From NCBI RefSeq assembly GCF_013315695.1, contig NZ_CP054353.1: 64,000 nucleotides of DNA; one strand, 5' to 3'. This DNA comes from Escherichia coli (GTDB lineage Bacteria; Pseudomonadota; Gammaproteobacteria; Enterobacterales; Enterobacteriaceae). Shown piece after piece: positions 27,001 to 30,000 of the stretch; the stretch's first letter is position 1; each line of letters starts with the position of its first letter. The position numbers are program-made.

Positions 27001-30000
27001 ATAAAACACTGCGCTCACTGAAACATGGCGAAGCCCTGCTGAAAATGGAGTGTTGTGGTGTATGTCATACCGATCTTCATGTTAAGAATGGCGATTTTGG
27101 TGACAAAACCGGCGTGATTCTGGGACACGAAGGTATTGGTGTGGTGGCAGAAGTTGGCCCAGGTGTCACTTCATTAAAACCAGGCGATCGTGCCAGCGTG
27201 GCGTGGTTTTACGAAGGATGCGGTCATTGCGAATACTGTAATAGTGGTAACGAAACCCTCTGCCGTTCTGTTAAAAACGCCGGATACAGCGTTGATGGCG
27301 GGATGGCTGAAGAATGCATCGTGGTCGCCGATTACGCGGTAAAAGTGCCAGATGGCCTGGACTCGGCGGCGGCCAGCAGCATTACCTGTGCGGGGGTCAC
27401 CACCTACAAAGCCGTTAAGCTGTCAAAAATTCGTCCAGGGCAGTGGATTGCTATCTACGGTCTTGGCGGTCTGGGTAACCTCGCCCTGCAATACGCGAAG
27501 AATGTCTTTAACGCCAAAGTGATCGCCATTGATGTCAATGATGAGCAGTTAAAACTGGCAACCGAAATGGGCGCTGATTTAGCGATTAACTCACGCACCG
27601 AAGACGCCGCCAAAATTGTGCAGGAAAAAACCGGTGGCGCTCACGCTGCGGTGGTGACAGCGGTAGCTAAAGCTGCGTTTAACTCGGCAGTTGATGCTGT
27701 CCGTGCAGGCGGGCGTGTTGTGGCAGTCGGTCTGCCGCCGGAGTCTATGAGCCTGGATATCCCACGCCTTGTGCTGGATGGTATTGAAGTGGTCGGTTCG
27801 CTGGTCGGCACGCGCCAGGATTTAACTGAAGCCTTCCAGTTTGCCGCCGAAGGCAAAGTGGTGCCGAAGGTCGCCCTGCGTCCGTTAGCGGACATCAACA
27901 CAATCTTTACTGAGATGGAAGAAGGCAAAATCCGTGGCCGTATGGTGATTGATTTCCGCCGCTAAGAGGCCTTTGCTGCGACTGCTATGTTCGGGTCGCA
28001 GCCTGTTTTGCGAGACGCTTTCCGCAATTTCACTCTTCTTCTTTTCCTCCCCCATCTTTCCCCTCACAATTCGCGAAAACGTAGCGAAATTTGTTGCGCT
28101 GCACGGAACAATAGTGATAGTGTTCCTTTTGAGGGAACAAGGATGAAGAGATGATAATGAATTTCAGACACAAGGGATTGCGTGACTTGTTTCTTCTCGG
28201 CAAAACCTCCGGCGTTATACCGACGCAAGTCAAACGATTACGCCACCGACTCGCTGTGATTGATGCAGCAAGCTGTCTTGCTGATATCGATATGCCCGGT
28301 TACCGATTACACCCGTTAAGCGGCGATCGCGATGGAATTTGGGCGATATCTGTCTCGGGCAACTGGCGGATAACGTTCGAGTTCGTCAATGGCGATGCAT
28401 ACATACTGGATTACGAGGACTATCACTGATGAAAATGGCCAATCATCCCCGCCCGGGGGACATTATTCAGGAATCACTGGACGAACTTAATGTCAGCCTG
28501 CGCGAGTTTGCCAGAGCTATGGAAATTGCGCCCTCAACGGCAAGCCGATTGCTGACCGGAAAAGCAGCTTTGACACCAGAAATGGCGATTAAACTTTCCG
28601 TGGTGATCGGCAGTTCGCCGCAAATGTGGCTGAATCTGCAAAACGCCTGGAGCCTGGCAGAGGCTGAAAAAACGGTGGATGTGTCGCGACTGCGCCGTCT
28701 GGTTACGCAATAAAAAAATGGCACCTTATAAAGACATTGCCCGATGCGCTACGCCTATCAGGCCTACACGTTCACTGCAATCTATTGGATTTGAACGGTT
28801 TGTAGGCCGGATAAGGCGTTCACGCCGCATCCGGCATGAACAAAGTGCACGTTGTCTACAATAAAAAATGGCGCCTTTTACAGCGCCATTTTCAGCTTAA
28901 AGTTCAAAAGAGATTATATCCCTTCTTCACTCTCTTTTTTCGCTTCTGCCTTCTCGATTTCACGATACCAGCGCGGATGGTGTTTCTTCGCCCAGCGACG
29001 GCTCACCTTCCCTTCGATCATCCCTTTAATCGATCCTTTCACCCAGAATGCCATATACATATGGATCAGGATGGCGTGGATCAGGATGATACCCGCAGCC
29101 GCATGGATCAGCAGGCTATAACGGACAACCTGTATCGGGAAGTACTGCGCAAAGTACGGACGCCAGATAATCACCCCGGTCACCAGCAGCACGAAAATCA
29201 TGCTCATGATCGACCAGAACATCATCTTCTGCCCGGCGTTGTACTTACCAACATCCGCCACTTTGTGCTCATTGCCTTTTAATACTTCGACAATGTTCAA
29301 CAGCCACGGAATATCTTTCTTATCCGGGATGTTGTGATGCACAAAACGCACAAACATAAACATCAGCGCGACGAAAATCGCAATGCCGAAGAACGGGTGC
29401 AAAATGCGTCCCATCTGCGGCGTACCGAAGGTTTGCGTCAGCCATTGCAGCGTCGGGAAGAAGAACGAAATCCCGGACAGCGCCACCAGGAAGAAGCAAA
29501 TCACCACGGTCCAGTGACAGGCGCGATCAATAAACTTGGTGCGCACAATCATTTTCGACTTACTCATGATGCTCCTCCTCGTCATCGTCCACTTCCTTAT
29601 TCGGGCCAATACCGATGTAGTGGAAAATCAACCCGGCAAAAGTGGCGATAAAGCCAGCCGCTGCCAGCGGTTTCAACGCGCCTTTCCACAAGTTCACCGA
29701 TGTGTCGATCTTCGGATCTTTCGGCAGACCGTGATACAGCTCCGGCTGATCGGCGTGATGCAACACGTACATGACGTGCGTACCACCGACCCCTTCCGGG
29801 TTGTAGACGCCAGCATGTTCGTAACCACGCGCTTTCAGTTTCGCCACGCGCTGTTCCGCCAGCTCCAGCATCTCCTTCTTGGTGCCGAAGTGGATAGCCC
29901 CGGTCGGACAGGTTTTCACACAAGCTGGTTCCTGGCCGACGCTGACGCGATCGACGCAGAGCGTGCATTTATATACCCGGTTATCCTCTTTGTTGAGGCG

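Follow-up and report, generated by a model that had tools for sequence, protein, structure and literature searches.

Within the 64,000-nt stretch of Escherichia coli DNA analysed here (contig NZ_CP054353.1; hereafter the window), two short overlapping genes lie on the plus strand between adhP, which ends at position 27965 of the same strand, and fdnI (28914-29567, minus strand). According to the ORF list of the window, maeA lies beyond adhP and fdnHG lies beyond fdnI. The first gene of the pair, higB (28151-28429), encodes a 92-aa protein of the HigB toxin family that starts with MIMNFRHKGL, ends with ILDYEDYH and is predicted to be a ribosome-dependent mRNA endonuclease. The second, higA (28429-28713), which is yddM, encodes an XRE-type HTH antitoxin of 94 aa (followed by the stop codon) that is a predicted autorepressor. 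The TGA stop codon of higB (28427-28429) and the ATG of higA (28429-28431) have one base in common in the sequence TGATG. A Shine-Dalgarno-like AAGGA (28139-28143) is located 7 nt 5′ of the higB ATG, and GAGGA (28415-28419) is located 9 nt 5′ of the higA ATG, inside the end of higB. The original prediction placed an overlapping, toxin-first HigB/HigA-like pair between adhP and fdnI; the coordinates, gene sizes, TGATG overlap and position that it gave are exact to the base when compared with the sequence and the ORF list.

The surroundings of the pair contain several other recognizable elements. REP/BIME-like repeats are found at 28720-28860, between the stop codons of yddM and fdnI; when they are included, a query hits the E. 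coli genomes at a median of 38 places each. In some strains, an IS200 element is present in the yddM-fdnI spacer. On the other side, a 51-nt C/T-rich stretch (approximately 28003-28053) follows the terminator-like hairpin of adhP; it is present in alleles with higB, absent from K-12 and partly kept in the O157:H7 strain TR01. Further along the window, a match to Rfam SECIS_3 (84 bits; 32864-32922, minus strand) corresponds to the selenocysteine insertion element of fdnG, a gene that is split by the ORF list at an in-frame TGA, yielding an 803-aa ORF at 30457-32868.

We searched both proteins against profile collections and against proteins of solved structure. A single Pfam family was matched by the 92-aa ORF, the HigB-like_toxin family PF05015 (E 1.5e-17, residues 4-92 aligned with positions 2-91 of the 91-position model), which is a toxin family. 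In the search of solved structures, phmmer aligned residues 1-92 without gaps with HigB of the Proteus vulgaris Rts1 system (E 8e-32), the best of the solved relatives, all of which are HigB or GraT mRNases. Both E values argue that higB is not a chance ORF. BLASTP counted 52 identical residues out of 92 (57%) and no gaps between the two HigB proteins. Ribosome structures and mutagenesis of P. vulgaris HigB have established that its toxicity and mRNA cleavage depend on four essential residues, His54, Asp90, Tyr91 and His92 (PMC5027501), all of which are kept at the same positions of the ungapped alignment in the window HigB. Some basic residues that P. vulgaris HigB has close to the mRNA path are changed in the window protein (K57 to S and R48 to M). 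Several basic residues of P. vulgaris HigB tolerate single substitution, and single alanine substitutions at the K57 and R48 positions identified these residues as non-essential (PMC5027501). A search of the literature retrieved no published experiment on this E. coli HigB; given the 57% identity to a toxin with ribosome-bound structures and mutagenesis, the mechanism of the window HigB is taken from P. vulgaris HigB.

The downstream protein was assigned to the HigA family. YddM scored 93.7 bits against TIGR02607 (antidote_HigA), the NCBIfam equivalog ‘HigA family addiction module antitoxin’, whose curated cut-off is 47.7 bits, and it contains an HTH_3 domain (Pfam, E 5e-9). Over its full 94 residues it shows 100% identity to the protein deposited as ‘antitoxin HigA’ in PDB entries 2ICP and 2ICT, which is HigA of E. 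coli CFT073 (PMC6987408), and it matches P. vulgaris HigA with an E value of 1e-18. Thus, both profile and homologue searches bear out the predicted toxin-first arrangement, with a HigB-family ORF upstream and a HigA-family XRE-HTH gene downstream.

In the Rts1 system, both the HigA dimer and the complex of HigB with HigA bind two operators named O1 and O2, which overlap the -35 and -10 promoter elements, and repress the promoter (PMC12266136). A repeat and pattern search of the window revealed a comparable arrangement upstream of higB. A putative operator O1 with the sequence TGTTGC-N7-GGAACA (28092-28110, plus strand) belongs to a direct-repeat family, and a putative operator O2, the perfect palindrome TGTTCC-N7-GGAACA (28121-28139, plus strand), is located 29 bp away from it. 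The pattern TGTTSC-N7-GGAACA, which describes both sites, is found twice in the window, each time upstream of higB, with 0.01 occurrences expected by chance. The two sites recur across Escherichia; E. albertii, E. fergusonii and E. marmotae all keep the putative O2, and in K-12, the half-sites of both putative operators are kept and the spacers are different.

The scan for consensus promoters did not report the elements that are expected at these operators, which match the consensus weakly; it returned a single promoter-like site (28129-28158), which extends into the start of higB and is no more frequent than expected by chance. A terminator scan of the locus was negative. Since the consensus scan yielded no usable promoter, the promoter was instead deduced from colinearity with the Rts1-type hig promoter. 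The putative -35 element is TTGCGC (28094-28099, plus strand), which is overlapped by O1, and the putative -10 element is GATAGT (28116-28121, plus strand), which occupies the position of TATAGT in the Rts1-type promoter and directly abuts O2. The resulting candidate promoter is TTGCGC-16-GATAGT, from which transcription would start about 7 nt past position 28121.

The Rts1 system (P. vulgaris; PDB 4MCT and 4MCX; ribosome complexes 4YPB, 4ZSN and others) resembles the window pair in several respects. The Rts1 module likewise has the toxin gene first, a 92-aa HigB with the four essential residues, a 1-nt stop/start overlap, and an N-terminal XRE HTH in HigA; its two palindromic operators, spaced by approximately 30 bp and extending over the -35 and -10 elements, have their counterparts in the two putative operators of the window. 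In the Rts1-type IncT plasmid pBML2531, a 279-nt higB overlaps higA by 1 nt (TAATG) and GAGGA is found 5′ of the higA start, the same geometry as in the window; its two palindromic operators are 30 bp apart (29 bp in the window) around TTGCAC-17-TATAGT. The two systems differ in their setting, since the window pair occupies a fixed chromosomal site between adhP and fdnI while Rts1 HigBA resides on an IncT plasmid; in the length of HigA, which is 94 aa in the window and 104 aa in Rts1; and in the operator half-sites, TGTTCC/GGAACA in the window versus GTATTACA/TGTAATAC in the Rts1 system. Because of this last difference, we infer that the putative operators and promoter of the window share the Rts1-type architecture and have a different specificity.

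The HigB-HigA pair of K-12 (ygjN-ygjM) is likewise called HigBA and has its toxin gene, encoding an mRNase, in the first position, but it lies at a different locus (fadH-rlmG), and the HTH of its HigA is at the C-terminus (PMC6987408, PMC7232551). K-12 HigB (ygjN) was absent among the solved relatives of the window HigB at E ≤ 0.01. Strains tend to have either the ygjN-ygjM pair or the adhP-fdnI pair; at the ygjN-ygjM locus, CFT073 and NRG857c have an orphan higA only (PMC7232551). GraT-GraA of Pseudomonas putida (PDB 6F8S) combines a toxin of the same fold family (E 4e-7) with an XRE HTH antitoxin (E 2e-11) and is much more distant; GraT, whose N-terminus is disordered, functions as a derepressor (PMC12266136), whereas the alignment of the window HigB with its P. 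vulgaris counterpart begins at residue 1.

The pair itself is already known. In a review table of 2009, CFT073, 536 and UTI89 are scored positive for HigB, and K-12 and O157 negative (PMC2654758). In a survey of the toxin-antitoxin repertoire of the AIEC strain NRG857c, the pair appears as TA20 ‘ParE-2/HigA-2’, and strains HS and K-12 are reported to encode the antitoxin only at this place (PMC7232551). We checked the coordinates of TA20 and found that it is the same locus as the window pair, with adhP and fdnI as flanks and an identical antitoxin; its toxin, WP_000605675.1, has a single residue difference (S41C) from the window toxin, which is the other common allele, WP_000605676.1. There is otherwise no substantive difference from the CFT073/NRG857c locus. 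A review of 2024 notes that TADB 3.0 lists the NRG857c pair as higBA and that such pairs ‘remain to be characterized’ (PMC11205521). The higBA deletion made in CFT073 by Norton and Mulvey (PMC3464220) was considered as a test of this locus and set aside, since the loci of that study are syntenic with MG1655, which points to ygjNM. The window contains an ordinary, catalogued E. coli HigB/HigA pair whose antitoxin structure has been solved and whose absence from K-12 has been published.

In a strain that shows no difference from the window across the 948-nt intergenic query (27966-28913), RefSeq annotates the toxin as WP_000605676.1 and yddM as WP_000781370.1. For all strains with higB, RefSeq names the toxin ‘type II toxin-antitoxin system RelE/ParE family toxin’; since NCBIfam contains no model that matches the window HigB, this generic name cannot be refined by NCBIfam. 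The identification of the HTH gene with K-12 yddM, made in the original prediction by position, is secured by the protein itself, WP_000781370.1 being encoded both by K-12 and by the strain 100% identical to the window. The supposed lack of a toxin partner in K-12 was also borne out, as the adhP-yddM gap of K-12 MG1655 is 145 bp long and contains no recognizable higB. It had further been suggested that the upstream ORF may be unannotated or variable. It is indeed variable, being absent in K-12, and the suggestion that it is unannotated does not hold, given that RefSeq annotates it wherever it occurs.

To describe the distribution of the pair, we used a set of 5,426 complete E. coli genomes. 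As many as 5,412 of them contain yddM, while higB DNA was detected in 1,330, always as a single copy and with partial coverage in just two of these. A 1-nt deletion in higB (G98, corresponding to window position 28248) is found in at least 545 of the 1,330 genomes, where the gene is annotated as ‘frameshifted’, and the undeleted sequence is found in at least 611; the short probes used at this site left approximately 170 genomes unscored. The genomes with the G98 deletion are mostly those of human clinical isolates and combine a higB pseudogene with an intact yddM. In one record, NZ_CP116981.1 (strain E6474), yddM is matched from nt 103 onward only and at two places, which suggests that the gene is interrupted or rearranged in this strain, among the very few exceptions to its conservation.

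Expressed as shares of the complete genomes, these counts mean that in about 75% (K-12 and most O157:H7 strains among them) higB is deleted and the promoter/operator region is kept along with an unchanged YddM, and that about 10% carry the 1-nt higB frameshift. An intact pair is thus possible in at most approximately 15%, the window included, and in roughly 85% of genomes an unchanged YddM exists without a working toxin.

The deletions are not all the same. K-12 MG1655 has yddM only, and at most a few bases from the 3′ end of higB remain; the deletion took away roughly 265-275 of its 279 nt. The breakpoints are ambiguous, with two alignments placing the remnant differently, and the clearly common part is only CACT(A/G)ATG at the higB/higA junction. 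The O157:H7 strain TR01 has a different, independent deletion, in which the last 47 nt of higB are kept at 100% identity (positions 901-947 of record L004) and are joined to an O1 of the K-12 type, O2 being absent. Together with the G98 frameshift, the K-12-type and TR01-type deletions indicate that the toxin was lost by at least three independent routes. Such repeated loss could mean that the toxin is of little use or that it is costly.

The order maeA-adhP-higB-higA-fdnI is also seen on contigs with toxin variants that are attributed by databases to E. albertii, E. fergusonii and E. marmotae. Since the pair occupies the same site in these species, HigBA is ancestral at the adhP-fdnI site in the genus Escherichia, and K-12 shows a derived deletion of the toxin gene. 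In E. coli, the module is undergoing decay that begins with the toxin. The E. albertii-type toxin contigs (L007 and L008) have an extra gene (3568-4044, minus strand), encoding a 158-aa NUDIX protein, between higA and fdnI, where E. coli has REP sequence only.

Comparison of alleles shows that both genes are constrained. Among seven alleles of yddM (intact, frameshifted and toxin-less), there are 3-12 synonymous and 0 nonsynonymous differences, and the intact higB alleles differ by 7-11 synonymous and 0-1 nonsynonymous changes. Such a synonymous excess means that both genes are constrained where the pair is intact and that the antitoxin is constrained even without the toxin. Thus, higB and yddM are under purifying selection.

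Taken together, we consider it highly probable (about 0.88) that the region 28092-28713 constitutes a complete, functional chromosomal type II HigBA module of the Rts1/P. vulgaris type, comprising an mRNase HigB, YddM as its neutralizer and autorepressor, two operators and translational coupling. By homology, HigB would enter the A site of translating ribosomes and cleave mRNA by means of His54, Asp90, Tyr91 and His92, and the cleavage would lead to growth arrest. The dimeric XRE-HTH protein HigA/YddM would bind HigB and hold it inactive and, alone or with HigB, would repress the operon through the two palindromic operators over the -35 and -10 elements. The 1-nt TGATG overlap and the GAGGA within the end of higB may couple translation of the antitoxin to that of the toxin.

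One can also envisage that YddM has a function of its own, either as a domesticated transcription factor or as an ‘anti-addiction’ protein that blunts HigB toxins encoded by plasmids entering the cell or by recombined alleles of the chromosome, the window pair then representing the ancestral state. We regard this as a tentative idea with a small though appreciable chance of being right. A related reading, in which yddM, as a transcription-factor gene, makes up the main part of the locus, with a dispensable and perhaps attenuated relic of higB next to it and with YddM regulating other genes or serving as an immunity protein, seems improbable to us; it does not exclude the HigBA module explanation. 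Recruitment of YddM to such a role would explain why yddM persists everywhere despite the loss of the toxin by three or more routes, and why the protein is identical across toxin-plus, frameshifted and toxin-less alleles in spite of the synonymous changes between them. For a ChIP-exo study in K-12, YddM was picked as a candidate transcription factor (PMC6237786). HigB homologues that are 40-57% identical, against which an immunity protein could act, are encoded by more than 500 plasmids, including plasmids from Escherichia, Salmonella and Providencia. However, an intact higB is under purifying selection and encodes every essential residue, so that in the window it does not look like a relic. 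In addition, P. vulgaris HigB expressed from pBAD24 still halts growth in E. coli BW25113, a derivative of K-12. Since K-12 carries yddM, native YddM is not protective against P. vulgaris HigB at high expression; the arrest counts, albeit weakly, against broad cross-protection by native YddM.

It is very unlikely that the physiological role of the HigBA module is abortive-infection phage defence and not addiction or stress response: the HTH antitoxin weakly matches candidate PADLOC families (E 7e-5 to 3e-3), with nothing specific to the pair, but no PADLOC family matches the toxin, the locus lies between core metabolic genes and not in a defence island, and the toxin has been lost in most E. 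coli. Equally doubtful is the idea, suggested by the label ‘ParE-2’, by the CDD label ‘ParE_toxin superfamily (cl21503)’ used in PMC7232551 and by the generic RefSeq name, that HigB is a ParE-type gyrase poison and not an mRNase, since no ParE family of Pfam was matched even at E ≤ 10, HigB-like_toxin being the sole match, the solved relatives are mRNases without exception, the HigB catalytic tetrad is intact, and the same NRG857c pair is called higBA in TADB 3.0 (PMC11205521). For lack of similarity to ParE profiles, the label ‘ParE’ is not supported for the window toxin.

Beyond its correct annotation, the HigBA pair of the window matters little in itself. Since K-12 makes the exact cognate antitoxin protein, tests of HigB toxicity in K-12 hosts call for a yddM deletion. 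The locus also offers a clean natural series of decay of a toxin-first toxin-antitoxin module, consisting of the intact state, the frameshift and two deletions with antitoxin and operators held constant, which could serve studies of orphan-antitoxin persistence.

A minor observation concerns the plasmid records. The entry NZ_CP141089.1 of PLSDB, a 4.94-Mb record listed among plasmids, carries the higBA locus at 100% identity and can almost certainly be regarded as a chromosome under a wrong label. The single ‘plasmid’ match obtained in the survey of higB genomes may be due to the same mislabelling.
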